IMG/VR virus record: IMGVR_UViG_3300020169_000003
Direction: 5' to 3' (one strand)
DNA: 35,657 bases
Origin: a virus
Positions 1-31,127 of the stretch are shown here, one piece after another. Each line of letters starts with the position of its first letter. Position 1 is the first letter of the stretch. The notes beneath the pieces were generated by a model, which searched no databases, was not told the DNA's origin, and was given only the letters and a program-made list of their open reading frames with translations. A program made the position numbers and the translations under genes.

Positions 1-127
1 TCCGTACAGCGCACACATTTGTAGCTGCTGCATCTTATTTCTCACGTCTTGCAGCCGCAGGTGACACTACGCACGTAGCCTACAAGCAACCGCTGACGAA
101 TTACATTACGTCACTTGTTGAACTTGG
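1..127. repeat. Terminal direct repeat, copy 1 (identical to 35531..35657): circular-assembly overlap or terminal redundancy
   Basis: The string tccgtacagcgcacacatttgtagctgctg...tcacttgttgaacttgg is read at both ends of the window. The copies match over the full 127 nt by direct comparison. Confidence 0.95.
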
Positions 128-746
128 TGGTGCTTACTGGGATACAATGGAATCCGCTGCATCCTTCGTAGGTGTAGGTATTCAAGGTATTACTGTTCCT
201 CTACGTGACGGTATGCCTGTCCCTACGCAAAATAACTTTGTTGCAGGTGACTTGGATCAATTGACTGGTCTCAAGGGTGATGCCTCGACTAAGTATTTGG
301 GGACTGGAGTAAATGAAGGATCATTGTCTCAAAACGACTCTTCCATATCTGTATACCTAACGACAGATCGTGACGTAACTCCTACTTCATCATACATTGG
401 CGGAACTATTGGAGTTTTTGCCATTGTAGATAATGCGACTGGATTTAGGTCAAGGCATATGAGTTCGTCACTGCAGACTAATGGAACATCAACTGCTGTT
501 GGTGGAATTATTGGCATATCTCGTGACAATTCCAGTGATTACGATTGGCGTGACGTAGACGCAAGTGGAACAAATATTGATACATCAACAAGTCAGGGCA
601 ATCTTGCAGTTGAAGTGTTTGCATCTAATGGCGGAAGTTTTCTTTGCTCGGCTCGCCTAGCAACTTATCACGCTGGCCCTGCACTTGACCTTGCAACCTT
701 AGAAGGTCTGCAAGACACCCTAATCACAGAAATCGCAGCAATTTAA
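3..746 (+). CDS. C-terminal half (module B) of a junction-spanning 504-aa two-module structural protein; continues from 34762..35657
   Basis: Frame 3 is open from base 3 (RTAHTFVAAASYFSRL...) to the TAA at 744..746. After removing the 127-nt overlap it is in phase with the ORF that runs off the 3' end. The track ORF 147..746 is only the internal-Met part. Confidence 0.8.
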   Translation, partial: RTAHTFVAAASYFSRLAAAGDTTHVAYKQPLTNYITSLVELGGAYWDTMESAASFVGVGIQGITVPLRDGMPVPTQNNFVAGDLDQLTGLKGDASTKYLGTGVNEGSLSQNDSSISVYLTTDRDVTPTSSYIGGTIGVFAIVDNATGFRSRHMSSSLQTNGTSTAVGGIIGISRDNSSDYDWRDVDASGTNIDTSTSQGNLAVEVFASNGGSFLCSARLATYHAGPALDLATLEGLQDTLITEIAAI

Positions 747-748
747 TT

Positions 749-1066
749 ATGACCCCATCAGAATATCTACTAACTAATCCTACGTCTGACGAACACAGCT
801 ACAACTATCTGCTGATTCCTGCAGAACTGCGGGACTCAATGATCGCCAAGCAGGACACCTTGACTACTAGCAATCATATCAGCCCAGTGCTGTTGATTGA
901 CGGACGCTACGGTGCTTGCTGTGACCTCTACACAGAGGTCGGCGTAGGCGGCATCTACCACGAACTATGGGAGATGCTTGACCAAGCTAAACTGGATGAA
1001 TGCGAAGTCGTAGACAAAGATACATTCCTGGCACTGCTACCACCTGACCCAGAACCTGAAGTATAA
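749..1066 (+). CDS. Hypothetical protein (105 aa)
   Basis: Track ORF, tightly packed in the plus-strand structural arm, with an acidic C-terminus (PPDPEPEV). No motif recognised. Confidence 0.6.
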   Translation: MTPSEYLLTNPTSDEHSYNYLLIPAELRDSMIAKQDTLTTSNHISPVLLIDGRYGACCDLYTEVGVGGIYHELWEMLDQAKLDECEVVDKDTFLALLPPDPEPEV

Positions 1067-1233
1067 TGCAGGACATTATTTACAAGTCAACTATTGGCAC
1101 AGGGGGCTTTGTCGCTACTATCGAATTGAATAGCATTAACGAAATTCTAGGACTAGTTGTGGGTCTTGCTACTCTAGTCTATATGACTGCATCGGCAGTC
1201 AAGGTAATCAAGGAACTCATAGACAAGGATTAA
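1066..1233 (+). CDS. Small membrane protein (55 aa), holin-like candidate
   Basis: Below the track cutoff. The ATG shares its A with the upstream TAA (TAATG). Translation: MQDIIYKSTIGTGGFVATIELNSINEILGLVVGLATLVYMTASAVKVIKELIDKD, with one clear hydrophobic helix and a charged tail. The TAA is at 1231..1233, 1 nt before the next start. Confidence 0.5.
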   Translation: MQDIIYKSTIGTGGFVATIELNSINEILGLVVGLATLVYMTASAVKVIKELIDKD

Positions 1234-1234
1234 T

Positions 1235-1630
1235 ATGACACCAGAACTGATAGCAATGCTAGGCGGGGGCGTAAGCGGCTTCGTAATGAAGATGATTGCG
1301 GCACAGGCCGATAATCAAGCACGTCTCTTTGAGCGTATGATTGCTCGTCAGACTGTAGCGGACGAGTCAGCGGACAAGGCAGCAGCTCGTGGTGGTGTCT
1401 ATATGCGTCGTGCAATTACGGCGGCAGTTATCTTTGCCATTGTAATAGCCCCATTTGTCTTCGCATTCACGGACATAGGTGTCAGTATTCAATCAGAATC
1501 CAAAGGCTTCCTAGGGCTATTCAAGAGCCTAGAATGGACTACTGTACAGGGTTTTGTTATCCTACCAGAGATCCGCCAAACAGCTTTAGCCATCGTAGGG
1601 TTCTACTTTGGTTCCTCACAAGTCAAATAA
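1235..1630 (+). CDS. Membrane protein (131 aa), holin/lysis-associated candidate
   Basis: Hydrophobic segments are LGGGVSGFVMKMIAA, AITAAVIFAIVIAPFVFAF and ALAIVGFYFG. It is adjacent to another small TM protein. Confidence 0.55.
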   Translation: MTPELIAMLGGGVSGFVMKMIAAQADNQARLFERMIARQTVADESADKAAARGGVYMRRAITAAVIFAIVIAPFVFAFTDIGVSIQSESKGFLGLFKSLEWTTVQGFVILPEIRQTALAIVGFYFGSSQVK

Positions 1631-1737
1631 CAAATAACAAATAATATTATGTACGGACGAAAAACAAAAAGTGCTGGCAAAGGATCCTGTGGTGAACGTG
1701 GTGGAAAGAAAGGCAAGTAGTGCCTGATAAGTCCAAG

Positions 1738-1965
1738 ATGAAGTGCAACGTACCCCGCCGTGAAGTACAAGGTGGGAAGAAGTTCGTCGTGAAAGCCTGC
1801 CAAGGTGGGACAGAGAAACTCGTACGATTCGGGGATGCTAATATGAGCATCAAGAAGGATCAGCCAAAGCGTAAGAAAAGCTACTGCGCTCGTAGCGGTG
1901 GCATCAAAGGTAAGACTAATAAACTATCAGCTAACTACTGGAGCCGTAAGGCTTGGGACTGCTAA
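1738..1965 (+). CDS. Small basic Cys-containing conserved phage/virus protein (75 aa from ATG 1738; the track uses GTG 1720)
   Basis: MKCNVPRREVQGGKKFVVKA...VRFGDANMSIKKDQPKRKKSYCARSGG...SANYWSRKAWDC. The pattern K-C-N-x-P-R ... V-R-F-G-D-x-x-M-x-I-K ... R-K-x-S-x-x-A-R ... Y-W-S resembles a widely distributed uncharacterised viral family, recalled from memory and not verified. Confidence 0.55.
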   Translation: MKCNVPRREVQGGKKFVVKACQGGTEKLVRFGDANMSIKKDQPKRKKSYCARSGGIKGKTNKLSANYWSRKAWDC

Positions 1966-1974
1966 AATAATATA

Positions 1975-4752
1975 ATGCCTGAATACCGCACATACGGAGC
2001 ACAAGACGATAGGATTCTAGAGGACCTCGATATGGGGTACACTGGGTTTAATGACTATCTACGTCCCGATCAACTAGAGCGTGGCCTATTAGCTTCTAGT
2101 AAAAACGGTAGACTTGGTCTTAACGGTGAGTGGCAGGTTAGACCAGGGATTGATTTAGTAGCCGCTCCTTTTGCTAGTGGTGACGATGTCCTTCGACTTC
2201 CAACTACTTCCGAATTAGAAGCAGTTCCTCCAGTTGTTGGCTTACTGCCAACTACAATTAGGTCCGCTTCCTTAACTACGAATGTAGTTACTATTGTTAT
2301 TGATGACCCAGCCGTTGAGCCAGGTCACGTGTTCATTGTTGGGGACGAGATTACAGTCAGCGGTATTGAATTTGGGGCGGACACAAATCCCAACGGAACT
2401 TTTATACTAACTTCCGTAACAGATAACACTGGAACAATATCCCTTACATATGATTTAGTTGGAGGAGATGCAACATATACTTTGCCAGTTGCTTTGCCTC
2501 AAGTCCTTCCATTTGCACTAAATGACATCCAAGGTTCGGCAGTCATTGGTTACAATATGCTACTGGATCAAGGAGGAATTTCAGGTGTTTATGCTAGTAC
2601 AGCGTACAGTAATCCAAATGATTCCGCTAGTCAGTGGGTGCTACTAGGGTCAAACGTAAGCGCACTAGCTATTAACCTAGCGGACCCAACAATTACATAT
2701 GACCTTCCGTACAAAAAGGGAGAAACAGCACCTCCGCTATCGGATATGATTCAAGCCTTTAACAAGGTGTTCTTGTTTCGTGACGGACAGACTGCGCTAG
2801 AATGGGACGGAAGCTTTTTGCCTGTAGCAGTAACTGACCTAGTTGTTGATGGTACTTATTCTATTACTGATTTGGGTGACACGACTCAATTGCAGTGGAA
2901 TACAATCGCTGGAACTTCGGGCATAACTTATGCAGTAAATGATACCATTACGGTTGATGCTGTAGGCACAGGAACGGGTACAGCCCGTTCTGGATTTACA
3001 CCAGTAAAGAGTGGTAAGTACACTCAGCCAGTTCAGATTGATTGCTTGCCTGGAGAGTTTGCTATTACTAATAGTATCGCTTCAGTTTCTGGATCTCACG
3101 ATGTAAAGGTTGGGGATGATATTACTGTAATGTCAGCAAGTATTAGCGGAGCAACAGACGCAGACTCTGGGCTAAGCATTGGTCAGGACTACGTTGTAAA
3201 TAAAGTTTACGAATTAAATGCAGGCACTGCCAATATCACTGGTGTTACTGATGCAGAGTTGCAAAACTCAGGAGACTTTGATGGTTTTTATAAATATACT
3301 ATTACTACAGACGTAGCACATAATTTAGTAATCGGTGAACCCATCATTATGGATGGATGGACTCCCAATGGCACTGCATTTAATGGATCATTTTTTGTTC
3401 AAGGGGTTCCAGATTCTTTTAATTTTGTTATCTATACCACTTTTAATGTTAATCCAACTGATGTGTCATATACAAATGCTCGTGTTGGAATTAATGCAGG
3501 CTTTCAGTTTGTGATTGATTCACGCACAGTTAGTACTCACGTAAATGACGGTGCATCTTTATTGACTGATCCTATCTTTACTAAAAAAGTTTCGGTTGGA
3601 CTGGGCTTTACTCATATGCCAGCTCCACCCTATGCGACCTATCACCAGCGTAGACTGGTTATGCCATATCGCTATTCGGTTGATGATCCAGAAGGGCAAT
3701 ACACCGTCCGTGATAACCTTGATGAAATTATTGTATCGGACATATTGGACTCAGATACCTATGACCAAATATACAATCAGTACAGGTTCAATGCTGGAAC
3801 GGCTGACTTTAACGTTGGACTACTGTCCTTTGCGGATGACAAGCTAGTAGTATTTAACCGTAATTCAATTCACTTAGTAGGTGGCAGCAGCCCTGCAAAC
3901 TCAAGTGTTCAATTAATTACAAATGAAGTAGGTTGCTTGGCCCGTAGGACAATTGTTCAAATTGGTAACAACGTAATGTTCCTATCTGACAATGGTGTAT
4001 ACGGAGCAAACTTCCAGGATCTGTACAACCTTCGTGGTAGCGAACTACCGCTAAGTAGTAGCATCCAGACTACCATTGATAAGATTAATCGTCAGCACTG
4101 GGATCAGTCCGTGGCTGTTTACTTTAACAATCGCTATTACATTGCGGTTCCAACTGACGGAAGCACCGTCAATAATACTATCCTTGTTTTTAACTTTATC
4201 AACAAGCAGTGGGAGTCCGTAGATAGCACGTCTGACGTGGACTGGGACATTGAGAACCTGATCGTAGCTGGTAAGAAAAGTGATCGTGCGGTATACGCAG
4301 TGAATGCCCTTGGAGGGCTTCACAGGGTTGATGCTCGCCCTGATGGCGTTGATCGACTGGCTACTACCATTCCAGTTCAAGGCGAACAGGAGGGCGTTAT
4401 CTACAGTATTCCTGCTGAAGTAACTACCCGTCAGTTTACCTTTAATGACTTCGGTCGTAAACGCTGGAGTGAATTTGAGATGCACGTGCAGTCCAGTGCA
4501 TCAGAGCAATCTGACTTTGATATTTCAGCGGAAGTAGAAAACATTGACGCAGAGGTAAATCTTAATACATTGAGTTCATACATTGGTGGAAGTCTCGAAA
4601 TTGACGAAGATGTTTCCATCCGTGGTAGAATAGGTAACCGCCGAGGATACGGCATTCAATTTACAATTAATAATACACAGGGTCGCCCAAGAGTCCGAGG
4701 AATCAAAGTCTCTGGAGCAACTGCATCAAGATCAACAACTAGCGTACAATAA
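1975..4752 (+). CDS. Large tail protein (925 aa), nozzle / tail-tubular-B-like candidate
   Basis: Called on size and position upstream of the fibres. The C-terminal part (VVFNRNSIHLVGGSS...VGCLARRTIVQIGNNVMFLSDNGVYG...NNRYYIAVP...ILVFNF) looks like a beta-propeller tail/stabilisation protein. The N-terminal part carries three copies of a 'G(D/E)xIxVxG...NGxF' repeat. Confidence 0.5.
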   Translation: MPEYRTYGAQDDRILEDLDMGYTGFNDYLRPDQLERGLLASSKNGRLGLNGEWQVRPGIDLVAAPFASGDDVLRLPTTSELEAVPPVVGLLPTTIRSASLTTNVVTIVIDDPAVEPGHVFIVGDEITVSGIEFGADTNPNGTFILTSVTDNTGTISLTYDLVGGDATYTLPVALPQVLPFALNDIQGSAVIGYNMLLDQGGISGVYASTAYSNPNDSASQWVLLGSNVSALAINLADPTITYDLPYKKGETAPPLSDMIQAFNKVFLFRDGQTALEWDGSFLPVAVTDLVVDGTYSITDLGDTTQLQWNTIAGTSGITYAVNDTITVDAVGTGTGTARSGFTPVKSGKYTQPVQIDCLPGEFAITNSIASVSGSHDVKVGDDITVMSASISGATDADSGLSIGQDYVVNKVYELNAGTANITGVTDAELQNSGDFDGFYKYTITTDVAHNLVIGEPIIMDGWTPNGTAFNGSFFVQGVPDSFNFVIYTTFNVNPTDVSYTNARVGINAGFQFVIDSRTVSTHVNDGASLLTDPIFTKKVSVGLGFTHMPAPPYATYHQRRLVMPYRYSVDDPEGQYTVRDNLDEIIVSDILDSDTYDQIYNQYRFNAGTADFNVGLLSFADDKLVVFNRNSIHLVGGSSPANSSVQLITNEVGCLARRTIVQIGNNVMFLSDNGVYGANFQDLYNLRGSELPLSSSIQTTIDKINRQHWDQSVAVYFNNRYYIAVPTDGSTVNNTILVFNFINKQWESVDSTSDVDWDIENLIVAGKKSDRAVYAVNALGGLHRVDARPDGVDRLATTIPVQGEQEGVIYSIPAEVTTRQFTFNDFGRKRWSEFEMHVQSSASEQSDFDISAEVENIDAEVNLNTLSSYIGGSLEIDEDVSIRGRIGNRRGYGIQFTINNTQGRPRVRGIKVSGATASRSTTSVQ

Positions 4753-4754
4753 TT

Positions 4755-5384
4755 ATGGCGGATATTACAATTACCCCAGCAGGGTTACCATTCGGCGGAA
4801 CTGATACCGTAACTTCAACTCGGCTTAATGAAGCCCGTAACCCTACGGCTGCCTTGGATGCAGGAACCATAGTCAACGCAGACGTGTCAGCTACTGCTGA
4901 TATTTCAGGCAGCAAACTTGCCAATACAAGCGTGACCTTTGCAAAGCTTGATGATGTCATCGACGATGACACAATGGGTACTGCCACTAATACTACTTTA
5001 GCTACTTCGGAAAGCATTAAAGCTTATGTTGATGAATACGCTATGAAGTACAGCACTGCCACCGGGACCATAAGTATTGGCATTGCGTGGGCAAACTGGG
5101 ACCTGTCGGGCACAATTGGAACGCAACGCTGTCTTGTCATTCTCGAATTGTACAATTCGAGCGCTTCGTATAACCTAAATTTCCGCACACCTGGTTCAAA
5201 TAGGACATCCTTTGACGCTCAAAGTAATGCGGGATGGGGAGCATCTGGCGGCATTGTGAGTACTTTATCCAGGGGTTCATCCTTTGCAGTGGTCACTGAC
5301 GCATCTGGTATTATTGAAGTTGAATCCTCATTAGCAGCAACCGCTGTGTCCTATAGGATCTTAGCATACCAAAAACTAGCTTAA
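4755..5384 (+). CDS. Tail fibre / receptor-binding protein paralog 1 (209 aa)
   Basis: Shares the segment 'N(T/A)xVTFAKLxDVIDDDTMxTATxxTLATSESIKxYVD' with the next ORF. The C-terminal ~110 aa is unrelated. Confidence 0.6.
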   Translation: MADITITPAGLPFGGTDTVTSTRLNEARNPTAALDAGTIVNADVSATADISGSKLANTSVTFAKLDDVIDDDTMGTATNTTLATSESIKAYVDEYAMKYSTATGTISIGIAWANWDLSGTIGTQRCLVILELYNSSASYNLNFRTPGSNRTSFDAQSNAGWGASGGIVSTLSRGSSFAVVTDASGIIEVESSLAATAVSYRILAYQKLA

Positions 5385-5421
5385 TGAACCCTTTCCTCCA
5401 ATCAGCTTAACAATTTAAATT

Positions 5422-6039
5422 ATGGCCATTATAAATAAAGGAACAGCTTTCTCCAACGGAGAGCAACTATCAGCAAGCAAGCTTAATGATTTAGTAGATG
5501 GAGCTACCTTTGGTACTGACTCTGTTGATAACGCCAGTACACTGGTAAACGCTAGCGGAGCTATTACAGTTCGGGATAGCGGGATTACTACCGCCAAGAT
5601 TGCAAATGCTAACGTGACTTTTGCGAAGCTTACAGATGTTATTGATGATGATACAATGGCTACAGCTACTGCCGATACTTTGGCTACGTCCGAAAGCATC
5701 AAGTCCTATGTCGATACAACAGTAGATAATCTGCCAAGTCTTAAGGCTCACTGTGTGTGGGACGGCACTTTAACAGGAACAAATGCTCCGATTAGCGGAA
5801 GTGGAGTTGCAAATGTAACTCGTAACGGAAATGGTAATTGGACTATTAATATGTCTGTTTCAGCTCCATCAAGTAGTTTTACAACTCTAGCAAGTTCTCA
5901 AGCTAAGAGTAACGGAACTACTAATAATGCAACTGGTGCGTACTCAACTAGCACTGTAACTGCATTGGTAACCCGTGAGCAAGCTGATGGTTCTGGTGCT
6001 GATGGAGACACGCCAATATCATTCGCTGCTATTTGGTAA
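5422..6039 (+). CDS. Tail fibre / receptor-binding protein paralog 2 (205 aa)
   Basis: Has the same conserved N-terminal ~95 aa as 4755..5384. The C-terminus is Ser/Thr/Asn/Gly-rich and divergent. Confidence 0.6.
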   Translation: MAIINKGTAFSNGEQLSASKLNDLVDGATFGTDSVDNASTLVNASGAITVRDSGITTAKIANANVTFAKLTDVIDDDTMATATADTLATSESIKSYVDTTVDNLPSLKAHCVWDGTLTGTNAPISGSGVANVTRNGNGNWTINMSVSAPSSSFTTLASSQAKSNGTTNNATGAYSTSTVTALVTREQADGSGADGDTPISFAAIW

Positions 6040-6040
6040 T

Positions 6041-6529
6041 ATGAACCCCCGCCTGCAATCAGTACAACTAGCGTTGCAAAACGCTACGCAAAAGGAAGCC
6101 CTTGTTTTTATTGATAAGGTAGTGAACTTCTGTATTGAAGGCCAGAACAGCAAGGTCCTTGAAGGGTGGAGCGAGGATACGATCAGACTTCTCGTTGCGT
6201 ACCATATATCAAAGAATACATTCCTACATACTGAATCCAAGGATGCAGAAATAACTGGAGTTCTGATGTGGTACAATTGTAACTATGAAGACAACTGGAA
6301 ATTTGTTGAAGAATGGCATTTGGATGACAAGAATGGAGATACTGTTTTTCTTGCATTTATGTGGGCATCTAATACTAAAGATTTTAAAAGGCTGATAATG
6401 AATCTGATTGTTAATGAGCCAACTGTATTATCTAAAAAACTCACTAGTCTAAGGACTAAAAACAAACAACCAACTAAAATTGATTACAGCACAAAAGTGT
6501 TTGCTAAGATTTTAAGTTTAAAAGATTAG
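6041..6529 (+). CDS. Hypothetical protein (162 aa) in an AT-rich insert
   Basis: ATG 6041 lies 1 nt after the fibre-2 stop. The track ORF 5975..6529 begins earlier, inside the fibre gene. Hand counts of 60-nt lines give about 27-33% G+C, against the mid-40s in flanking genes. Confidence 0.6.
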   Translation: MNPRLQSVQLALQNATQKEALVFIDKVVNFCIEGQNSKVLEGWSEDTIRLLVAYHISKNTFLHTESKDAEITGVLMWYNCNYEDNWKFVEEWHLDDKNGDTVFLAFMWASNTKDFKRLIMNLIVNEPTVLSKKLTSLRTKNKQPTKIDYSTKVFAKILSLKD

Positions 6530-6538
6530 GAATATATT

Positions 6539-7903
6539 ATGGGAAGCAAAGGAGGAAACGAACCAGAAATGCCAGATCCACGTAAAACTGGGCCAGCTAA
6601 TATGATGGCCGAGTATATGTTTGGATACGGAGCAGGCAAACAACAATACAAGGGAATTACTGACGCAGGATTACAAAGCAGGATTCTTGGGGCTGAAAAA
6701 CAATTTAGACCACAGTACCTAGATTTAGAACTTACTGATTTAAGCAATAGATTGTATGGACTTGAGGCTGGTCGTGAAAACCCAAGAATTCAAACATTAA
6801 ATCAGCAAATTAAGGCTAAACAAGCTGAGAGGCTAAGAGCAATGCGAAGCGGTGAGCCTGTTAAAAAGATAAACCGGCAACTAAGAAGTCTCAGAGAAGC
6901 CCTTGCAGAAACTCCTGAAACCATTGATGAGGCAACTCCAGGTATGTTTGAACTCAGTCGAGCAGCGGCAGAGGAAGCAGGCATAACACAGCGGAGTGAA
7001 GAGGATCTACAACGTGCAGCGGACGTAGGAGCACTTGAGCAGTACGCTCCTCAAGTTGTTGAAGCGTACCGTGAAGCTGATCCTTATAGCACTGGACTTG
7101 CAGAGTCCCAGACTGCTATGGCGCAGGATCTTTACCAACGTGCTCAAGGTTTAAACCCAGAGCAGCAGCGTATAGCTGACCAGCAAGCCTTGCAGATGTC
7201 TCAGCGTGTAGGTCGTATAGGGGATGAAAGCTCTGTAGCTAGTCAGATCCTTGGACGCGAGAACTATCTTTCTGGTTTGCGTTCTGAAGCAGCAGGTATG
7301 GGACAACAGGCTTTTGGTATGAACAAATTAATGGCTGGTGACTCAGGTATGGCTATACTTGGCCGACCAACTCAGTCTGCTGTAGGGGGGTCCGCATTAA
7401 TGGGATCTACTCAAGGTCTGCGTACTGGACCTGCACTGTTTGATCCTAATGCTGGTGTTAATTACGGTATGCAGAACCAAGCGAATATGATGGGACTACA
7501 GGGTGCTCAAGCTCAGGCTGCTGCATCTCGATCCGCTGGTATGTCTGGTATGATTGGACAGATTGCACCCGCAGTACTAGGGAGTGCTAGCAAGTATGCA
7601 GCAGGTAAACTTGCTACTAGCGCAGCCGCTACTGCAGCGGGAGGGGCCGCTAAAGCAGGAATCGGAGCAAAACTCGGTACGATTGGTTTAAAGGCCCTTG
7701 CAATGTTTTGCTGGGTAGCTCGTGAGGTTTACGGAACTGAAACCGACGAGTGGATGAAGTTCCGTGAGTGGATGCTTAACGATGCTCCTAGTTGGTTCCG
7801 TAAGCTTTACATTAAGCACGGCGAACGCTTTGCTAAGTTTATTTCCAATAAGCCTCGTCTTAAAGCAATCATTCGTAAATGGATGGATACAAAAATTAAA
7901 TAG
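6539..7903 (+). CDS. Internal virion / ejection-type protein (454 aa)
   Basis: Its position parallels the T7 gp14-16 block. It has a Gln/Ala/Gly/Met-rich low-complexity centre, a hydrophobic stretch, and the C-terminal motif CWVAREVYGTETDEWMKFREWMLNDAPSWF, which I recall from marine phage structural proteins (unverified). Confidence 0.45.
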   Translation: MGSKGGNEPEMPDPRKTGPANMMAEYMFGYGAGKQQYKGITDAGLQSRILGAEKQFRPQYLDLELTDLSNRLYGLEAGRENPRIQTLNQQIKAKQAERLRAMRSGEPVKKINRQLRSLREALAETPETIDEATPGMFELSRAAAEEAGITQRSEEDLQRAADVGALEQYAPQVVEAYREADPYSTGLAESQTAMAQDLYQRAQGLNPEQQRIADQQALQMSQRVGRIGDESSVASQILGRENYLSGLRSEAAGMGQQAFGMNKLMAGDSGMAILGRPTQSAVGGSALMGSTQGLRTGPALFDPNAGVNYGMQNQANMMGLQGAQAQAAASRSAGMSGMIGQIAPAVLGSASKYAAGKLATSAAATAAGGAAKAGIGAKLGTIGLKALAMFCWVAREVYGTETDEWMKFREWMLNDAPSWFRKLYIKHGERFAKFISNKPRLKAIIRKWMDTKIK

Positions 7904-7905
7904 TT

Positions 7906-8748
7906 ATGGCATTTCAAACAGGATCACAAATCGACCCCCGTCTAATGCAGGCGGATTACAGCGGCTTTACAAACGCCGCTAACATACGAGCGAACGCACT
8001 AGCTAACCTTGGTCAGCAGATTGGTGGGGCTATTGAGTCCTACGGCATCAGGAAGGAGAAGAAGGCTAACCAGAAGCTTAGATACGAATCCATCTTGCCT
8101 TATACAACTCAACAGTTCGGAGCTGAAGAAGGAGAGAAAATGGCACAGCAATTTGCACTTGATCCGGCATTGACATCCCAGGTAATGCAGTTTGCTACAA
8201 TCCAAAAGGATCAAGAAGTTCTCGATAAAGCTCTTGCAGTAAGTACGAATACTGATGGCACGACTGACTGGGGACAAACTGTTCAATCTTATATTGAATT
8301 AGGTGGAAGTGATCCACGGATGGTTGCCGGTCTAGCTTCGGAAGCACGTAAATCCGATCCTAAGGAAGCATTTACTCCATCAGTAATGGAGGTAGATGGC
8401 GTGACATTCGCTATAACCAGTAAGGGAGGTGCTCAAGTTATTAGTACCCCTGACGGTGGTGAGATTAAATTACCGGCAGGTGCTCAATTGACCGAGTACA
8501 AGATTAAAAAACTTGCAGAAGCCAAAGAACTATATAGGTCAGGAGATGCAAGTTCAGCCCAGGACATTATTACTGGTCTAGGACTTCAAGATAAACTAAG
8601 CAACGCACCATTTACTCCAAAGGAAATTTTTCCTGGAGTTGTACCTGAAGTTGTACCCAAAGTTGTTACCCCGGATGGTACTGCAGTTGGTGATGAAGAA
8701 GAGAGCCTTCAAGATATTATTGCCAGAAATCTAACACCAAATCAATAA
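7906..8748 (+). CDS. Internal virion-type protein (280 aa)
   Basis: Track ORF, translationally coupled to its neighbours (TAATG overlap with the next gene). No enzymatic motif seen. Confidence 0.45.
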   Translation: MAFQTGSQIDPRLMQADYSGFTNAANIRANALANLGQQIGGAIESYGIRKEKKANQKLRYESILPYTTQQFGAEEGEKMAQQFALDPALTSQVMQFATIQKDQEVLDKALAVSTNTDGTTDWGQTVQSYIELGGSDPRMVAGLASEARKSDPKEAFTPSVMEVDGVTFAITSKGGAQVISTPDGGEIKLPAGAQLTEYKIKKLAEAKELYRSGDASSAQDIITGLGLQDKLSNAPFTPKEIFPGVVPEVVPKVVTPDGTAVGDEEESLQDIIARNLTPNQ

Positions 8749-11700
8749 TGGAGTTTACCGATGAACAGCTCGAAACCGCTATTCGTAATGCTGATTCTGC
8801 TGGTAACGTACAGGACGTACAGGCATTAGCAGTTGAATACAATCGTCGCAAGCAGGCATCTCAACAGGACAGGGGTCTAGTTGAAGAGGTAGCCTACCTT
8901 GCGGATGACTTTGCGAATCAATTCACTCTATCAATAGCTAATATAGCTGGTTCTCCAGTTGATCTTATTAGCTTCGGGTTGAACAAGATATCCAATGCTA
9001 TCATTGACGAGGATATAGTATACCCTGATTCCTTTGGCGGTTCATCGAGTATCAAGAGGGCCTTGGCGTATATAGGGACTCGTGAAGAGGCTCCTAGGAC
9101 TAAAGCTGGTTATGTGGGTCAAGTAGGAGGTGAAGCTGCTGCTTTTACTATGCCCCTGCTTAAGCTGGCGCAGGTAACAAGTAAGACAAAGGCAGTCACG
9201 GGAGCTGGTAAGGTTGCTCAAGCTATTGCAAAGGACTTCACAGATGAAGCGGTTACTAAAACTGGGAGGCTCCTTGCCATTGAATCCGGGGCCGCAACAA
9301 CCGGTGGACTTGCAGGAGAGTACGCTGAGAATGAGAATCTAAGCCCAGGTGCTGCATTGGCCGTAGAGGTCCTTGCTGGCGTAGCTGGTGGCTTTGCTGG
9401 TGCTGGTGCGTATAATATTCCCAAGTCCCTCCTCAAGAAGGTACAGGGCAAGAATGCTACAGAGATAATGGAAATGGTATCCAATGGTTCTATTGAGTAC
9501 AAGGATCTGGACTGGGCGTTGGAAAGTAAACCGTTGTTTAAGGACGATGGTAGATTCACATTTGATGAATCATTACAGCCCGGTGACATTGAAACAAGGG
9601 GCAAGGGCATTCAGTTTCACGGAACATCCGAGCCAGTTTCAGTTTTACGTTCTGCTGATGATGCTGCGTCAGAAATGAATATATATGGACAGGGTTTTTA
9701 TACAACGGAGGCTCTGGATGTAGCGGAAGGATATACGAAAAAAGGAAAGGGTTCAAAGCCAAGCATTTATAAAGTACAGGAGGTCGCTCCAGTTAATATA
9801 TTAAATATTGATGAATTTCAATTTAAAGATTTAGGTGAACTTGGACTAGGTTATGAGTTCAAGGAAGTAATAGATGAACTTCCCAATAATGCTACTGTAC
9901 GTCAAGTCTTTGACGCTATTAGAGATGAAGTTGATTTGCCAACATACGAAATACAAGAGATGGCATTTTATCCTATAAATGACAGAATACAGGAACTAGG
10001 ATACGGTGGTATTGAGCACATCGGAGGAAAGATATTTAAGAAAAAACCTCACAAGGTTAAGATTTATTTTGATGCTGAAAATCAAATTAATTTATCTGAA
10101 ATAAAACCAGAGGGATCACTTCCTGGTGTAGTCAAGAAACCCTTGGATGCACCAAAGCCAACAATGCCGGGTGTTGTCCGTGAATCATTTGAGTTCCAAG
10201 CTGCACGTCAAGAGATAGCCAATAACGTTTCCAACAAACAAAAGGTTGAGGCTGCTGTTGCATTGAACAACTTGGACAACTATAGACCCGATTCTCCATT
10301 AAATCCAAAGAGGATGATCAACAAGATCCTGTCGGTATTTGCTCCGTCAAAGGTTCTTGGTAACGATATTGTAAATGAAATTGAAATGGCCAAGGGTACT
10401 ATTAACCGAGCACAGGAGTTAGGTGCTAGAGTTAAACGTGTAGTAGGTCGTCTGGAAAAGAAGGACCCGACTGTACGAGAAAGTGTTGACGTTTTCCTAA
10501 AGGGCGGAGAGATGGCCCCATCACTTGACCCAGTTAAGGTTGAGTTAATTAAGTGGAGAGAAACAATTCAGGAGTTACAAGGTACATTACTTCAAGGTAT
10601 GGATGATGAAGTCTTTGAGGGACTATCAAAGGCAGGCCAGAAGGAAGTACGTGAAACTATCGAGGCTTCTATCGAACAGGGTTACTTGACTCAGACATAT
10701 AAGATCTTCCAGGATCCTGACTATCGACCTACCAAGGCTCAAGAAGATGCCGCACTAAAGGAGATACAGCTGAAGATTATGATGGGTGCTGATGCTGGGA
10801 CTATGACAATGCCACAAGCTGAGGACTTAGCCCGCAAGCAAATGGACCACCTAAGGAAAAGTTCAGCGCGGCAGAGAAAGGCGGAAGGAAGGCAACAGGG
10901 AGCCGTGAAGGAATCCAAGGGTATACTACGTGAGCGCAGTAATCCAGGACCAGCGGAACGCGCTTGGCTTGGTGAGGTCACTGATCCCAAGGAGCGAGCA
11001 TTTAGTACAGCTAATAGATTAGCTAGACTAGCATCATCAAAAGCTGAGGATGTTGCGATAGCTAAATTCCTTTTGGATTCTGGAGTTGCTACACGCAGGC
11101 CAGCTAACCCCGATCAAGTTCAGATGAAGTTCCGAACCATTGAGGGGGACTCATCAGTGTTCATTGATCCAGAGGTAGCGCACTCATTAGATATGATGCG
11201 CTTTGGAGAAGCCAATACTGTTAAATCCGGGATAGCTGGGTATCTGGATAGAATCTGGAATGCTTGGGTTGGTACTTCAAAGTCAACTAAGGTTTTACTA
11301 AATCCTGAGTCCTATATGGTTAATTTATTTGGAGCCGTGGCTAGTACTATTTCCTCTGGGATTATACCAACCCCTAAGGGGTTTCGTTCGGCTCTGTCTG
11401 ACTTCGGATCCTGGGATGATTTACTTTCCGGTAAAAACACTGTAGGCCGACGCGCACTACTGGATGACATCGATAAGATGAACCAGTACGGATTGAAGCC
11501 CAAGAGCGTTAATGCTGCTGACATCGAGCAAAATGTTATCAAGGGACTGGAGGGATTAAATAAATCCTTGAAGGGAGGCATAAGGGCAACAATGGATGGG
11601 TTCGGCAAGGCTTACTCCGTTGGTGATACATCAATGCGATATGTAGTATGGAAAGGTAACCAGAAGCAATTAAAGAAAATGTTCCCGGACTATAGCGTTT

Positions 11701-13121
11701 CTGAAATCGAAGCTGCTGCTGCTCGACTGACAAATAATACATTCCAAAATTACGACAAGCTGAGTAATATAATTCGCCGATTATCAAGGGCGGGATTGGC
11801 TGACCAGTTCGTGCCATTCACGGCTGAACTTACTCGCAATATGTACAACCAGGGTAAGTACGTTGCTCAGATGACTGCTGGTACGTTCGGCAAGGAGATC
11901 GGTCTTGACCCAGCTAGGGCAAATAAAACTCAAATGCGCTTACAAGGCGTAAAGCGTGGGGCAGCATTAGCGGCGGTAACAGCCGGAACAGATGCCGCTA
12001 TTACACAGTATAACGAATTAAAGGGAGTAACGGAGAAGGACGAGGAACAGTTCGGGTTTTCAATTGCCCCAGAATGGGACAGCAGTAAGAGGTTGATAAT
12101 CATCCCGGATAAAACTGGACGGAAGGGCCGATATGTCAACCCAAGCTATTTGGTTCCGCAGGGTATGGCCGCACAAGCGTTTGAGGCTGGGTTCAGTGGG
12201 TCTCCATTAGCTAATCTTATAGAATTTTCCAAGGATCAGTATATCGGAGCACCTGGTACATTCCCTGTACGAGCAATAGGCCAGATAATATCTGGACGTG
12301 ACCTAAATGGAAAGCTGATTAGTGTAGATCCCCGCACACAAGAGGTAGCTAAGGATGTTATGGGTGTCATCTACGATGAAACATTGAAACCAGGTGCGCA
12401 GAGAACTATCGAAAGATGGAGTGATTCACTCTCAGGTATAGGTGATCGCACTACAAAGGATAACGCACTACGTATGCTGGGTATCCGTGACTACCAGTGG
12501 GATGCCGAGAAATCATTTACCAATAAACTTCGTGAAATATCTGAACCAATGCGTCAAGCAAAGGGTACGTACTCATCGGCACTTCGTAAGTTCACAGATA
12601 ACAACATACCAAGAGAAGAACTGGATGCTACCTATGAGGAGATGAATACGGCTCGACGCTTGAATATGGATATTATGCGCCAGCACTACCTAAACCTAGG
12701 TGGTGGGACGTGGAAGTACTCACAGGATGAACGAATTGTTATGATGAAGGAAGCGGGGGTATCATCCGCAGACATCTTAGACGTAATAGAAAACACTTAT
12801 ACTGACATACCTCTGGTAAAGGAGGAATCAACATCTCAAATATACGATGACATCCCCGGTGGCACTAAGGAGAAAGCGGCCTACTTGAGAAAATTATCAA
12901 AGACTGAGCCGTTCTTGGCCAGAAAACTAAGAGCTATTCATACGAAGTCCGACAACCTTACTGAGAAAGAACACTTGATACGTACATTAAGCCCACAGCG
13001 CAGAGCTGATCGTCTCATTGAAATGGGTGCTCACGAGAATCGAGCACTGATGAGGGAGATGATGTTAAAGAATATCGCAAACCCAGAGATTTTGCACATC
13101 ATCAAACTACGGACCAAGTAA
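8748..13121 (+). CDS. Giant virion-associated polyvalent-type protein (1457 aa) with an embedded ADP-ribosyltransferase-like segment
   Basis: It is the largest ORF and the last gene of the structural arm. The N-terminal motif is EQLETAIRNADSAGNVQDVQALAVEY. Residues ~285-430 read GKGIQFHGTS...NIYGQGFYTTE...LGYGGIEHIGG, an H-Y-E-like arrangement. Confidence 0.55.
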   Translation: MEFTDEQLETAIRNADSAGNVQDVQALAVEYNRRKQASQQDRGLVEEVAYLADDFANQFTLSIANIAGSPVDLISFGLNKISNAIIDEDIVYPDSFGGSSSIKRALAYIGTREEAPRTKAGYVGQVGGEAAAFTMPLLKLAQVTSKTKAVTGAGKVAQAIAKDFTDEAVTKTGRLLAIESGAATTGGLAGEYAENENLSPGAALAVEVLAGVAGGFAGAGAYNIPKSLLKKVQGKNATEIMEMVSNGSIEYKDLDWALESKPLFKDDGRFTFDESLQPGDIETRGKGIQFHGTSEPVSVLRSADDAASEMNIYGQGFYTTEALDVAEGYTKKGKGSKPSIYKVQEVAPVNILNIDEFQFKDLGELGLGYEFKEVIDELPNNATVRQVFDAIRDEVDLPTYEIQEMAFYPINDRIQELGYGGIEHIGGKIFKKKPHKVKIYFDAENQINLSEIKPEGSLPGVVKKPLDAPKPTMPGVVRESFEFQAARQEIANNVSNKQKVEAAVALNNLDNYRPDSPLNPKRMINKILSVFAPSKVLGNDIVNEIEMAKGTINRAQELGARVKRVVGRLEKKDPTVRESVDVFLKGGEMAPSLDPVKVELIKWRETIQELQGTLLQGMDDEVFEGLSKAGQKEVRETIEASIEQGYLTQTYKIFQDPDYRPTKAQEDAALKEIQLKIMMGADAGTMTMPQAEDLARKQMDHLRKSSARQRKAEGRQQGAVKESKGILRERSNPGPAERAWLGEVTDPKERAFSTANRLARLASSKAEDVAIAKFLLDSGVATRRPANPDQVQMKFRTIEGDSSVFIDPEVAHSLDMMRFGEANTVKSGIAGYLDRIWNAWVGTSKSTKVLLNPESYMVNLFGAVASTISSGIIPTPKGFRSALSDFGSWDDLLSGKNTVGRRALLDDIDKMNQYGLKPKSVNAADIEQNVIKGLEGLNKSLKGGIRATMDGFGKAYSVGDTSMRYVVWKGNQKQLKKMFPDYSVSEIEAAAARLTNNTFQNYDKLSNIIRRLSRAGLADQFVPFTAELTRNMYNQGKYVAQMTAGTFGKEIGLDPARANKTQMRLQGVKRGAALAAVTAGTDAAITQYNELKGVTEKDEEQFGFSIAPEWDSSKRLIIIPDKTGRKGRYVNPSYLVPQGMAAQAFEAGFSGSPLANLIEFSKDQYIGAPGTFPVRAIGQIISGRDLNGKLISVDPRTQEVAKDVMGVIYDETLKPGAQRTIERWSDSLSGIGDRTTKDNALRMLGIRDYQWDAEKSFTNKLREISEPMRQAKGTYSSALRKFTDNNIPREELDATYEEMNTARRLNMDIMRQHYLNLGGGTWKYSQDERIVMMKEAGVSSADILDVIENTYTDIPLVKEESTSQIYDDIPGGTKEKAAYLRKLSKTEPFLARKLRAIHTKSDNLTEKEHLIRTLSPQRRADRLIEMGAHENRALMREMMLKNIANPEILHIIKLRTK

Positions 13122-13277: not shown

Positions 13278-14006
13278 CTATGGTTTCTTATATTTGATAA
13301 GTAAATCTTTTAGGTTACGCTTCTCATCCTGTAACTCCTTTCGCTGCTCGGTCATACGATCAATGCGGTAGGATAGAAGCCTGGATTCCTGCCGAATCAT
13401 ATCGATCTGGGTCTGGATTCTTTCAATGTTTTCTTCATTGTCTTGCATCCTCTGAACTTGTATGGAAGCCTTCTCTTTGTCAACAAATAACTCAGGAAAA
13501 TTTAACCCTTCTAGGGGATAATTTAACTCCTCGTAGCAGAAGGTATCACGGGCAATAGCGGCCTCCTTCTCGTCATCAAAGTAGCCCAGTTCATACAGCT
13601 TCCTGCTCTTGCCTCTACCTACATCAATTGTAACTCGGCATCTTTTCTTTCCAGATGGCCAGTATACTCCGCGGTACTTGGAATTGCCCTTTATCTTTTG
13701 TGACCCCCTTAGATTCTGAGATCGTGTGACGTACCGAAGGTTGTACGGAGCATTGTTTAATTTATCCCCATTGATATGATCAACGTCATAGTTGTTGGGT
13801 CTCGATCCAAGGAAGGCTCTTGCGATTAAATCGTGAATCTTTAATGAATGTGAGTTAATGGTATGCTGCACGTAACCTCTACCGTCCGTGCATCCAAAAG
13901 TACGACCTCTACTGCGCGGAACGTGAACCTCTATACTGCCATCCGAGTAACAGGTTACTCTTATTCCATTTACGCTTATATCCCTTGATGTTTCTGTAGC
14001 TATCAT
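13278..14006 (-). CDS. HNH-AP2 homing endonuclease (242 aa)
   Basis: The HNH_3-type motif is DHINGDKLNNAPYNLRYVTRSQN. It is followed by an AP2-like motif, SKYRGVYW...RVTIDVGRGKSRKLYELGYFDDEKEAAIARD. Confidence 0.8.
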   Translation of the reverse strand: MIATETSRDISVNGIRVTCYSDGSIEVHVPRSRGRTFGCTDGRGYVQHTINSHSLKIHDLIARAFLGSRPNNYDVDHINGDKLNNAPYNLRYVTRSQNLRGSQKIKGNSKYRGVYWPSGKKRCRVTIDVGRGKSRKLYELGYFDDEKEAAIARDTFCYEELNYPLEGLNFPELFVDKEKASIQVQRMQDNEENIERIQTQIDMIRQESRLLSYRIDRMTEQRKELQDEKRNLKDLLIKYKKP

Positions 14007-30130: not shown

Positions 30131-30610
30131 ATGACACCTGATCAATACGCAAACAAGCGGACTGACGAGATGTTATTCCCCAAGCGACTACAGGAAGCAA
30201 ATGAAATGGCTATGGAAAGGGGTAAAAATTTTGGTTACCAAGTGCGACCAAAATTATTCCCTGGAGAAATAGAATATTTCAAGAAAAACCCTGATACTCC
30301 AGGATATGCTGACTTTGAAAGTGACTCCATTGTGTTAAACCCATTCTCTACATTGCCTGCCGAGGAATTAACTTTTTTGGTAGACAATGAAAGTATTCGT
30401 TTAAAAATGAATAAAGATGAGTTTGTCCCATCTGATTTTAAAATTACTCCAGAACAAAAAAAGTTCTTTGAAAAAACTCCCTACAAAGATAATCCTGTTG
30501 CTATGCGACAAACTATTCTTGCTAGGGCTTATAGTGGTGATAATCAATCAATGGAATATACACCAGAGCAACTCAAGGAACTTGAATCATATTTATCTAA
30601 TGGCGAATAA
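30131..30610 (+). CDS. Hypothetical protein (159 aa) sharing an N-terminal peptide with the lysozyme
   Basis: MTPDQYANKRTDE... The 17-mer CTGATCAATACGCAAAC at 30138..30154 is repeated exactly at 30619..30635. Confidence 0.6.
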   Translation: MTPDQYANKRTDEMLFPKRLQEANEMAMERGKNFGYQVRPKLFPGEIEYFKKNPDTPGYADFESDSIVLNPFSTLPAEELTFLVDNESIRLKMNKDEFVPSDFKITPEQKKFFEKTPYKDNPVAMRQTILARAYSGDNQSMEYTPEQLKELESYLSNGE

Positions 30611-31127
30611 TATTACAGCTGATCAATACGCAAACCAACGAGCAAAGGATCTACGAGCACAGGAATACTACGATATGATTGCCCTTAATGAGGGTGTCAA
30701 ACCAAAGGTATACAAGGACAGCAAGGGTCACAGGACCATTGGTGTTGGCTTTAATTTAGAAGATGCCGGTAATCGAAAGATCCTAAAGAAAGAAGGCATT
30801 GATATTAATGAACTCTTTAAGGGTAAAGAACTGAGTGACAAGGAAATCAAAAGACTGTACAATCATAGTCTAACCCAAGCTTTTAATGACGCTCAAAAGT
30901 TTGACAAAGGATTTGCTAAACGACCTGAGCCAGTAAAGAAGGCAATTGTCGATATGTCATTTAACCTTGGCCTTACTAAACTCAATAAGTTCAAGAAGAT
31001 GCGTGAAGGTCTTGAGGCAAATGACTACAGCGTAGCAGCAGATGAAATGGTTGATAGTGAGTGGTTCAAGCAAATCAAGTCCCGTGGTCCACGAACAGTA
31101 GGTTTAATGCGTTCAGCCGCTAAATAA
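30600..31127 (+). CDS. T4-type (GH24) lysozyme (175 aa)
   Basis: Trimmed from track ORF 30417..31127 to ATG 30600. ALNEGVKPKVYKDSKGHRTIGVGFNL matches the T4 lysozyme E...D...T catalytic region (compare [23 protein letters not shown]). Confidence 0.85.
   Translation: MANNITADQYANQRAKDLRAQEYYDMIALNEGVKPKVYKDSKGHRTIGVGFNLEDAGNRKILKKEGIDINELFKGKELSDKEIKRLYNHSLTQAFNDAQKFDKGFAKRPEPVKKAIVDMSFNLGLTKLNKFKKMREGLEANDYSVAADEMVDSEWFKQIKSRGPRTVGLMRSAAK

Follow-up and report, generated by a model that had tools for sequence, protein, structure and literature searches.

An ADP-ribosyltransferase-like domain lacking the canonical acid as probable optional cargo of a predicted phage ejection protein

The IMG/VR virus record IMGVR_UViG_3300020169_000003 was analysed as a single stretch of DNA of 35,657 nucleotides (nt), referred to here as the window, with a focus on its gene for a protein of 1457 amino acids (aa), part of which had been likened to ADP-ribosyltransferases (ARTs) in an initial annotation. 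Residues ~281–449 of this protein are almost certainly a homologue of the ART fold. Because Pfam matches of the homologues, hhalign profile alignments, an AlphaFold2 model, and Foldseek searches agree, both the fold and the placement nearest to the ARTs found in polyvalent proteins of phages and conjugative elements (the ART-PolyVal/Tox-ART-HYD2 lineage) are well supported. Judged from residue conservation, the domain belongs to an acid-less sister subfamily, 'H-Y-V (+H435/H424/D389/R392)', in which the His and Tyr of the NAD pocket are retained. It is very probably an optional, mobile cargo of the protein that carries it. The best explanation overall, which we favour by a little, is that the domain is an NAD+-binding, acid-less ART-fold cassette that would act as an injected effector.

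The motif strings that drew attention to the segment are present as described, with GKGIQFHGTS at residues 285–294, NIYGQGFYTTE at 311–321, and LGYGGIEHIGG at 417–427, which contain H291, Y318, and E423, respectively. Searching 1.84 billion representatives with a profile resulted in 1581 clusters at E ≤ 1e-3, of which 321 were at ≤ 1e-30; these clusters were formed at 50% identity and consist mostly of proteins of 1000 aa or more. As the domain is shared by these clusters and by 23 close homologues, the resemblance to ARTs reflects homology rather than chance. Among the close homologues, 19 of 23 match the Pfam family DUF3990 (best E-value 2e-9) and 14 of 23 match ART-PolyVal (best 7e-8). Alignment by hhalign of 171 family members with 10 canonical ART-PolyVal domains, which were taken from giant viral open reading frames (ORFs) that also hold a window-type domain, gave a Prob of 97.8% and an E-value of 9.6e-13 over 125 columns encompassing strands 1–5, and a hidden Markov model (HMM) built from five canonical seeds recovered family members at 1e-5 to 5e-9. 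The AlphaFold2 model of aa 251–470 has a mean predicted local distance difference test (pLDDT) score of 81.7, exceeding 90 in the core, and the order of its strands fits the split beta-sheet of the ART fold (strand 1, 289–293; strand 2, 317–320; strand 3, 339–345; strand 4, 421–426; strand 5, 435–440; strand 6, 447–452), with a helical insert at 359–416. Searching this model against BFVD with Foldseek gave 46 matches at E ≤ 1e-3, the top ones being proteins named 'ART-PolyVal-like domain-containing' and 'PolyVal ADP-ribosyltransferase'. In the PDB, the first match was gp27 of phage A4 (chain 9k3a_B; E 1.5e-5, prob 1.0), followed by the RES toxins 6gw6 and 9r35 (E 0.013–0.05, prob 0.92–0.96, template modelling (TM) score to target ~0.53) and then by diphtheria toxin, PARP1/2, tankyrases, and PARP15 at E 0.06–1, with low-probability non-ART chains interspersed. 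Matches to ART folds were thus obtained by profile alignment and by structure comparison in both databases, and the likeness to polyvalent-protein ARTs proposed in the initial annotation is borne out by the hhalign result, the top BFVD matches, and the Pfam matches in homologues. The family profile had a single, spurious match among PDB sequences (E 1.6), and neither PHROGs nor NCBIfam contains a family for the 1457-aa protein or its ART-like domain.

Having established the fold, we examined the residues expected to form the active site. Conservation was counted over 171 domain instances, each representing a cluster at ≤50% identity, with totals of 164–167 per column. On strand 1, H291 is present in 165 of 166 sequences and G292 in all 166. 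The strand-2 motif is similarly retained, with N311 in 161, Y313 in 158, G314 in 166, G316 in 164, Y318 in 166 of 166, T319 in 159, and T320 in 155. In polyvalent ARTs, the expected residues are a His on strand 1, a Tyr on strand 2, and an Asp on strand 5 (Iyer et al. 2017, PMC5512222). The R-S-E active site of the T4 Alt/VIP2 ARTs is not matched, as strand 1 carries a His and strand 2 a Tyr instead. Of the H-Y-E triad proposed initially, H291 and Y318 stand as invariant residues, and E423 does not: position 423 is variable (R in 34 sequences, T in 33, E in 27, S in 23, and others), such that Glu is found in only 27 of 165 sequences, and the residue is located on strand 4, before the canonical catalytic strand, which rules it out as the catalytic Glu. 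Conservation among homologues had been named in advance as an observation that could overturn the triad, and it was lost at the Glu position only. The Asp of the canonical 'GYDG' motif was also considered as the missing acid and is ruled out, since it aligns with the variable position 420. In place of acids, the family has other near-invariant positions, including H424 (160/165), G426 (164), and G427 (163) on and around strand 4, and Y329 is near-invariant as well. On strand 5, where the canonical ART-PolyVal alignment has the motif [E/D/Q]-x-V-x-F-x-P, H435 is present in 164 of 164 sequences, V437 in 160 of 164, and I439 in 156 of 164, with Pro at position 443 in 154 sequences (Ala in the window). 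The canonical acid is set opposite V437 by hhalign, with H435 two residues upstream. As H435 opens strand 5 according to the AlphaFold2 strand boundaries, it could functionally substitute for the acid. The stretch containing D389 and R392 has no aligned counterpart in canonical ART-PolyVal domains, where hhalign places a template gap.

The genomic context of the domain suggests that it was inserted into the protein as a unit. In a syntenic genome fragment (L077) with 89% nt identity over the alignable stretches, which make up most of the locus, and 88.9% identity up to nt 9558, a sequence of only 24 nt replaces window nt 9559-10149. The L077 protein thus runs from ...KDDGTFN directly into 'MDAPAPQTPKPTMPGVV', and the window protein runs from ...KDDGRFT into FDES..., through the domain to ...KKPL, and from there into DAPKPTMPGVV. 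In the comparison with L007, the viral contig nearest to the window, protein identity is 90–100% per 50-aa block, dropping to 30–60% within aa 251–500 only; at the DNA level, window 9559-10201 is unmatched by blastn and its flanks are 86–91% identical. A search with the C-terminal 987 aa resulted in 58 clusters, 57 of them alignable, which keep the N-terminal 270 aa and the C-terminal ~970 aa, and in many of these metagenomic relatives the C-terminal scaffold is 85–96% identical. At the position of the insert, which we refer to as the slot, 34 of the 57 scaffold clusters encode a Pro/Ala-rich linker of 13–44 aa, and ~22 encode a cassette of 140–276 aa. The recognisable occupants, listed in Table 1, include window-type domains, canonical ART-PolyVal, ParB, and a methyltransferase. 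Pfam gave nothing reliable for the cassettes of P0165, P0172, P0182, P0198, P0207, P0211, P0212, and P0218; by eye, P0172 might tentatively be called GNAT-like, P0211 and P0212 ParB-like, and P0198 and the phage C75C1 protein R-variant ART-like. Cultured phages show this architecture too, as ORF31 of Pseudoalteromonas phage vB_Pun_Y3 encodes a canonical ART-PolyVal domain (E 2e-6) preceding a homologous C-terminal body.

Since relatives with an empty slot exist, the domain appears dispensable for virion function. The cassette has a GC content of 37.4% and a third-position value (GC3) of 25.9%, compared with 45.7–47.8% and 41–43%, respectively, in its flanks, and is thus compositionally foreign and probably horizontally acquired. 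Ratios of nonsynonymous to synonymous substitution (dN/dS) of 0.14–0.38 within the cassette reveal purifying selection, which together with the invariance of the pocket residues argues that the domain is functional. Relative to L079, the cassette contains ~4-fold fewer synonymous differences than the surrounding scaffold (12 versus 202; binomial p 1e-7), suggesting that it moved or was swept more recently than the scaffolds diverged. No exact repeats of 7–14 nt were found between the two cassette junction regions. At the right junction (window 10124-10175, aa ~459–476), 'SLPGVVKK' stands eight residues ahead of the scaffold's 'TMPGVVRE', and this peptide echo, 'LPGVVKK ... MPGVVRE', could be left over from the recombination event by which the cassette came in. 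A further observation concerns the cassette-equivalent position of coding sequence 3 of phage C75C1 (L003 8707-12738, aa ~235–360) and of P0198, where the pattern 'KLYRGG ... (V/I)(Y/F)(T/L)(S/T) ...' occurs; this segment looks like an ART-like variant with Arg for His, and it was not detected by the family HMMs or Pfam.

The 1457-aa protein is predicted to be an ejection-type (internal virion) protein that carries the cassette, a prediction drawn from the position of its gene at the end of the structural arm, its size, its helical C-terminal 950 aa, and its hydrophobic N-terminal segment. Gene order confirms the initial description of the gene as the last and largest of this arm. The C-terminal scaffold is modelled by AlphaFold2 with a pLDDT of 70.5 and is almost wholly helix. 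Its tblastn matches are found in C75C1, Y3 ORF31, and gp123 of Cellulophaga phage phi18:3, the last of which is annotated as structural from tandem mass spectrometry and is distantly homologous to aa 636–1041. Only the all-alpha character and large size of the scaffold body are typical of ejection proteins; a resemblance to A4 gp26/gp27 or to T7-type core proteins was considered and is unsupported (best Foldseek E-value in the PDB, 0.1). The gene position, the phi18:3 gp123 homology, the match to A4 gp27, and the optional cargo slot strengthen the earlier suggestion of an effector delivered with the DNA, and we regard delivery of the domain into the host as likely.

Table 1. Locations of the carrier gene, its parts, and neighbouring genes in the window, with slot occupants and co-occurring domains in related proteins (positions in rows for named loci are those within the encoded protein)
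Feature	Location	Strand	Details and basis
Scaffold gene, 1457 aa	8748..13121	+	ORF list and translation; the structural arm ends with this gene, its largest
Conserved N-terminal scaffold part, aa 1–270	8748..9558	+	Shared by relatives up to aa 270, whether or not they have a cassette
Gly/Ala-rich hydrophobic segment, aa 198–222	9339-9413	+	Kyte-Doolittle window >1.4
Inserted cassette, ~aa 271–467	9559..10149	+	Breakpoints from blastn comparison with L077 and L007; consists of the ART-like domain and short linkers
ART-fold core, aa 281–449	9588..10094	+	HMM envelope 281–449, AlphaFold2, Foldseek, hhalign
Strand-1 NAD-binding motif H-G-[ST], H291-G-T-S294	9618..9629	+	Aligns with canonical 'YHGT'; compare PARP 'HGS'
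Strand-2 motif, N311-I-Y313-G-Q-G-F-Y318-T-T-E321	9678..9710	+	Compare PARP 'GKGIYFAD'
D389 and R392 in family-specific helical insert ('LRExYDExR')	9912..9923	+	D 157/167, R 158/167
E423 and neighbouring invariant H424, strand 4	10014..10019	+	Conservation counts, AlphaFold2 strand assignment
Strand 5, H435-K-V437-K-I439-Y-F-D-A443	10050..10076	+	hhalign column mapping, conservation counts
C-terminal scaffold	10150..13121	+	Pro-rich linker 'DAPKPTMPGVVRESF', then ~950 aa nearly all alpha-helical
925-aa ORF	1975-4752	+	aa 615–757 match PHROGs 'internal virion protein', 'virion structural protein', 'amidase'
HNH endonuclease	13278-14006	-	PHROG 99, E 6e-30; directly downstream of the scaffold gene, convergent
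Phage lysozyme domain	30417-31127	+	Pfam Phage_lysozyme, 37.6 bits; flanked by the 694-aa ORF at the portal position and the head genes
Slot occupant: window-type domain	window, P0170, P0194, P0195		
Slot occupant: version of the window-type domain	P0173, P0178		37–41% identical
Slot occupant: canonical ART-PolyVal	P0203, P0206		
Slot occupant: ParB	P0204, P0179, P0184, P0209		P0204 by PF02195; P0179 and P0184 61–71% identical to P0204; P0209 weak
Slot occupant: class-I methyltransferase	P0210		Methyltransf_11, 24.3 bits versus 21.2
Locus L037	window-type domain 1265-1441; canonical ART-PolyVal 2403-2575		Also PBECR5, LPD38
Locus L021	window-type domain 1208-1384; canonical ART-PolyVal 1747-1910		Also SLT, LPD38
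Locus L064	window-type domain 622-785; canonical ART-PolyVal 487-613		Domains adjacent; no further domains detected
Locus L053	window-type domain 448-622; canonical ART-PolyVal 268-386		Also ddrB-ParB

Window-type domains are a common component of giant viral proteins. Among 72 viral loci, the domain is located in ORFs of ≥1000 aa at 58 and in stand-alone proteins of <400 aa at 9, and some proteins have two or three copies. Several of these giant proteins also encode canonical ART-PolyVal domains (Table 1), which score 50–113 bits. As both domains co-occur in one polypeptide, the window-type family is presumably paralogous to canonical ART-PolyVal and non-redundant with it. Polyvalent proteins are predicted to be injected with the DNA (Iyer et al. 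2017, PMC5512222). The label 'polyvalent-type' first given to the window protein fits only loosely, as the protein has a single recognisable enzymatic domain on an unassigned scaffold; polyvalent proteins with several enzymatic domains do, however, include window-type domains. In vB_Pun_Y3 (L002 1-5084), a giant ORF with a coding sequence of >10 kb and a 'DdrB-like ParB superfamily domain' is located directly upstream of the ART-bearing ORF31, such that this phage appears to carry a true polyvalent protein adjoining the scaffold homologue. A single narrow pattern applied to bacterial genomes matched only three loci (a Comamonas metagenome-assembled genome (MAG), Delftia tsuruhatensis, and a Peribacteria MAG), a result that reveals little about prophage distribution.

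In the favoured reading of an injected effector, the scaffold would be packaged in the capsid as an internal protein and expelled with the DNA, and the cassette, located within a Pro-rich linker of a mostly alpha-helical virion protein, would enter the host at the start of infection. It would then transfer single ADP-ribose units from NAD+ to a target belonging to the host or to a defence system, comparable to T4 Alt and to the model proposed for polyvalent ARTs. Without the acid, the reaction would need to follow a Glu-independent route, either substrate-assisted, as in the H-Y-I/L PARPs, or His-assisted. PARPs with an H-Y-I, H-Y-L, or H-Y-Y motif and Tpt1, with H-H-V, are active despite having no Glu. 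We consider it reasonably probable that the domain is catalytically active on NAD+, and propose only tentatively that its acceptor is a protein.

A number of results weigh against this reading. The family appears to have no conserved acid at the canonical catalytic position, and with E423 variable, classical transferase chemistry is not guaranteed. The register of V437 and H435, and with it the geometry of the pocket, depends on a profile alignment with a posterior of ~0.6–0.8 at these positions. The window sequence itself matches the Pfam models only below their gathering thresholds, with an E-value of 0.0016 and 18.6 bits for DUF3990 (PF13151; cut-off 32.2) and an E-value of 0.044 and 15.0 bits for ART-PolyVal (PF18760; cut-off 31.2, profile positions 10–55 only), and enzymatically characterised ARTs in the PDB match the model weakly (E 0.01–1, TM score 0.3–0.5). 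With respect to delivery, the ~1000 aa outside the domain, described at first as having no nameable domain, indeed match no Pfam, PHROG, or NCBIfam family; the all-alpha model of the C-terminal scaffold has no match below E 0.1 in the PDB by Foldseek, in a library that includes the A4 pre-ejectosome chains; and the link to phi18:3 gp123 is weak, at 22% identity over 28% of the query.

Among the alternatives, the one that survives best, which we nevertheless judge unlikely, is a catalytically dead ART-fold module whose role in the ejection complex would be structural or one of binding, for example with NAD+/ADP-ribose-like ligands, DNA, or a host protein as the bound partner. Both acids are gone, as V437 takes the place of the strand-5 residue and position 420, aligned with the GYDG Asp, is variable, and the Glu-less PARP-like domains of PARP13 and TASOR lack activity. 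In addition, the domain of A4 gp27, the nearest solved relative, is an integral part of a pre-ejectosome (PMC12002296). A structural role is difficult to reconcile with the slot being empty in most close relatives, which implies that the domain is unnecessary for the structure of the scaffold, and the other occupants of the slot are enzymes (ART-PolyVal, ParB, methyltransferase). Moreover, H-G-[ST], Y-G-x-G-F-Y-T-T, and four further polar residues are invariant among sequences at ≤50% identity, a pattern that is active-site-like rather than decayed, and the activity of the H-Y-I/L/Y PARPs and H-H-V Tpt1 demonstrates that Glu can be dispensed with (PMC7955679).

Quite unlikely, in our estimation, is a broader proposal in which the H-Y-V subfamily with its additional histidines would act independently of Glu on a non-protein acceptor, such as the leading genome end, host nucleic acid, or a nucleotide signal, as one of several interchangeable anti-defence cargos. 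If true, the ejection scaffold would contain a modular 'payload bay' that is reshuffled among marine podophages by recombination. Specific modification of nucleic acid, in which a phage DNA end or host RNA or DNA would be ADP-ribosylated in the Glu-free manner of Tpt1/KptA or DarT as an anti-restriction or anti-exonuclease measure, is distinctly improbable. A hydrophobic strand-5 residue is a hallmark of the H-H-h (Tpt1/KptA) clade (PMC7955679), the conserved basic residues R284, K332, R385, and R392 and the two His residues could bind phosphate, and the ParB-like and methyltransferase types that also occupy the slot are tied to Dar-type protection of injected DNA (PMC5512222). However, strand 2 carries a Tyr, whereas the H-H-h clade has a His at this position, and in profile comparisons the domain sides with the HYD2 lineage, for which protein targets are predicted (PMC5512222). 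In addition, no nucleic-acid-binding domain was detected beside the cassette with Pfam. A role of the domain as an NAD+-consuming hydrolase or phosphorylase similar to RES/TNT NADases rather than as a transferase, which would alter host NAD+ or ADP-ribose-derived signalling after injection, is likewise very unlikely: RES toxins are the best PDB folds after A4 gp27, and ART folds of the RES type have rebuilt active sites and degrade NAD+, but the sequence is far nearer to ART-PolyVal and DUF3990 than to RES, early bulk loss of NAD+ would resemble abortive-infection defence and hurt the phage, and the few packaged copies would probably be ill-suited to a stoichiometrically demanding metabolic role. 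Some phage versions of the ART fold have been considered possible NADases or NAD+ phosphorylases (PMC9503650).

An exact direct repeat of 127 bp at window positions 1–127 and 35531–35657 indicates that the window represents the whole genome of a marine phage, ~35.5 kb in length, with either direct terminal repeats or a circular assembly overlap. The + strand genes of the structural arm include those for a terminase, a 694-aa ORF, a major head protein, and a lysozyme; the 694-aa ORF occupies the expected position of the portal and has no family match. Past the terminal repeat come the 925-aa protein and a number of unassigned ORFs, and the arm ends with the 1457-aa gene, which thus shares it with packaging and late genes such as those for terminase, lysozyme, and the major head protein and with the internal-virion-protein-like ORF, a setting characteristic of polyvalent proteins (Iyer et al. 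2017). The 925-aa ORF yields nothing in a Pfam search; judging by its PHROG matches, it probably encodes another ejection protein, which would include a cell-wall hydrolase domain. The HNH endonuclease gene is conserved at this position in L077, L078, and L079, and is followed on the - strand by a homologue of the DnaB-helicase gene that is annotated by Pfam in L077. The ORF for the lysozyme overlaps the preceding ORF (30131-30610) by ~190 nt, such that its start codon is questionable or a frameshift may be present. Upstream of the scaffold gene, L007 (1-7064) has no detectable nt similarity to the window (1-8745), although the scaffold proteins are 86% identical overall; as L007 matches the scaffold protein yet not the DNA upstream, the tail and ejection module appears to be strongly mosaic.

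That ARTs occur in polyvalent proteins is already known, as a computationally defined kind of domain. To our knowledge, such domains from phages, first described in 2017, are still known solely as computational predictions, with no demonstrated activity or target. This analysis adds three things: a very large acid-less sister subfamily, now delimited, that current Pfam models miss and that is found alongside canonical ART-PolyVal; one defined payload slot of an ejection-type scaffold, which near-identical marine phages have empty or variously filled; and an ART-like domain recognised within the A4 pre-ejectosome, whose structure is solved. Near-isogenic genomes that differ in one cassette constitute a natural experiment in which the role of the cassette in host range or defence evasion is directly testable. 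The replacement of the acid by Val, accompanied by invariant histidines, raises a mechanistic question about Glu-independent ADP-ribosylation, and A4 gp27 (PDB 9k3a) offers a structural entry point to the way such cargo is stowed in a capsid.

Of the known systems, ART-PolyVal (PF18760; Tox-ART-HYD2 clade), whose prototype is the ART of the virion RNA polymerase of Roseovarius Plymouth podovirus 1 (PMC5512222), shares with the window domain the fold, the motifs 'YHG[TS]' and 'G-x-[FY]-[FT]-[ST]-x-D', and the habitat in large phage virion-associated and polyvalent proteins. The window domain differs in its 58-aa helical insert with D389 and R392, in having a variable residue for the GYDG Asp and Val437 for the strand-5 [E/D/Q], and in its invariant H424 and H435. 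DUF3990 (PF13151; ADP-ribosyl clan) is the best Pfam match of the window domain, with aa 290–358 aligned to profile positions 4–74, but the likeness extends over strand 1, strand 2, and the following helix, and thus over the N-terminal half alone. DUF3990 is, furthermore, a stand-alone toxin of toxin–antitoxin and Rhs/type VI secretion systems that is paired with an antitoxin, whereas the window domain is part of a phage virion protein.

A4 gp27 (PDB 9k3a_B; Anabaena phage A-4L, L001 20116-25269, - strand) provides the best solved match to the model of the window domain; here, too, the domain is part of a podophage ejection protein, the largest one of that phage. The string 'LYHGT...WGSGTYFS...GDTTLVINP' at aa ~1420–1610 identifies this region, at the level of fold and motif, as an unannotated H-Y-D ART-like domain. 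The protein is an outer-layer subunit of the pentameric pre-ejectosome, and ADP-ribosylation is not mentioned in the cryo-electron microscopy paper describing it (0 occurrences; PMC12002296). Its domain is C-terminal, retains an Asp before strand 5, and has a TM score to the query of only 0.47; the family HMM found nothing significant among A-4L gp26–29, and outside this domain gp27 shows no detectable relationship to the window scaffold. T4 Alt, a mono-ART that is packaged in the head and injected to modify host proteins (PMC5512222, PMC9503650), is a functional analogue whose activity has been proven experimentally, and it differs in belonging to the R-S-E rather than the H-Y-x clade and in being a separate protein rather than a cassette. 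The Glu-less PARPs with H-Y-[I/L/Y] (PARP10/14/15/16) and the H-H-V enzymes Tpt1/KptA also have a hydrophobic residue on strand 5, yet are active (PMC7955679). The PARP motifs 'HGS' and 'GxGxYFAD' resemble 'HGTS' and 'GQGFYTTE' of the window, but the similarity is weak and at the level of the fold (Foldseek E 0.09–1), such that common descent beyond the superfamily is unsupported. In comparison with both the PARPs and Tpt1/KptA, the additional invariant His residues are peculiar to the window-type family.

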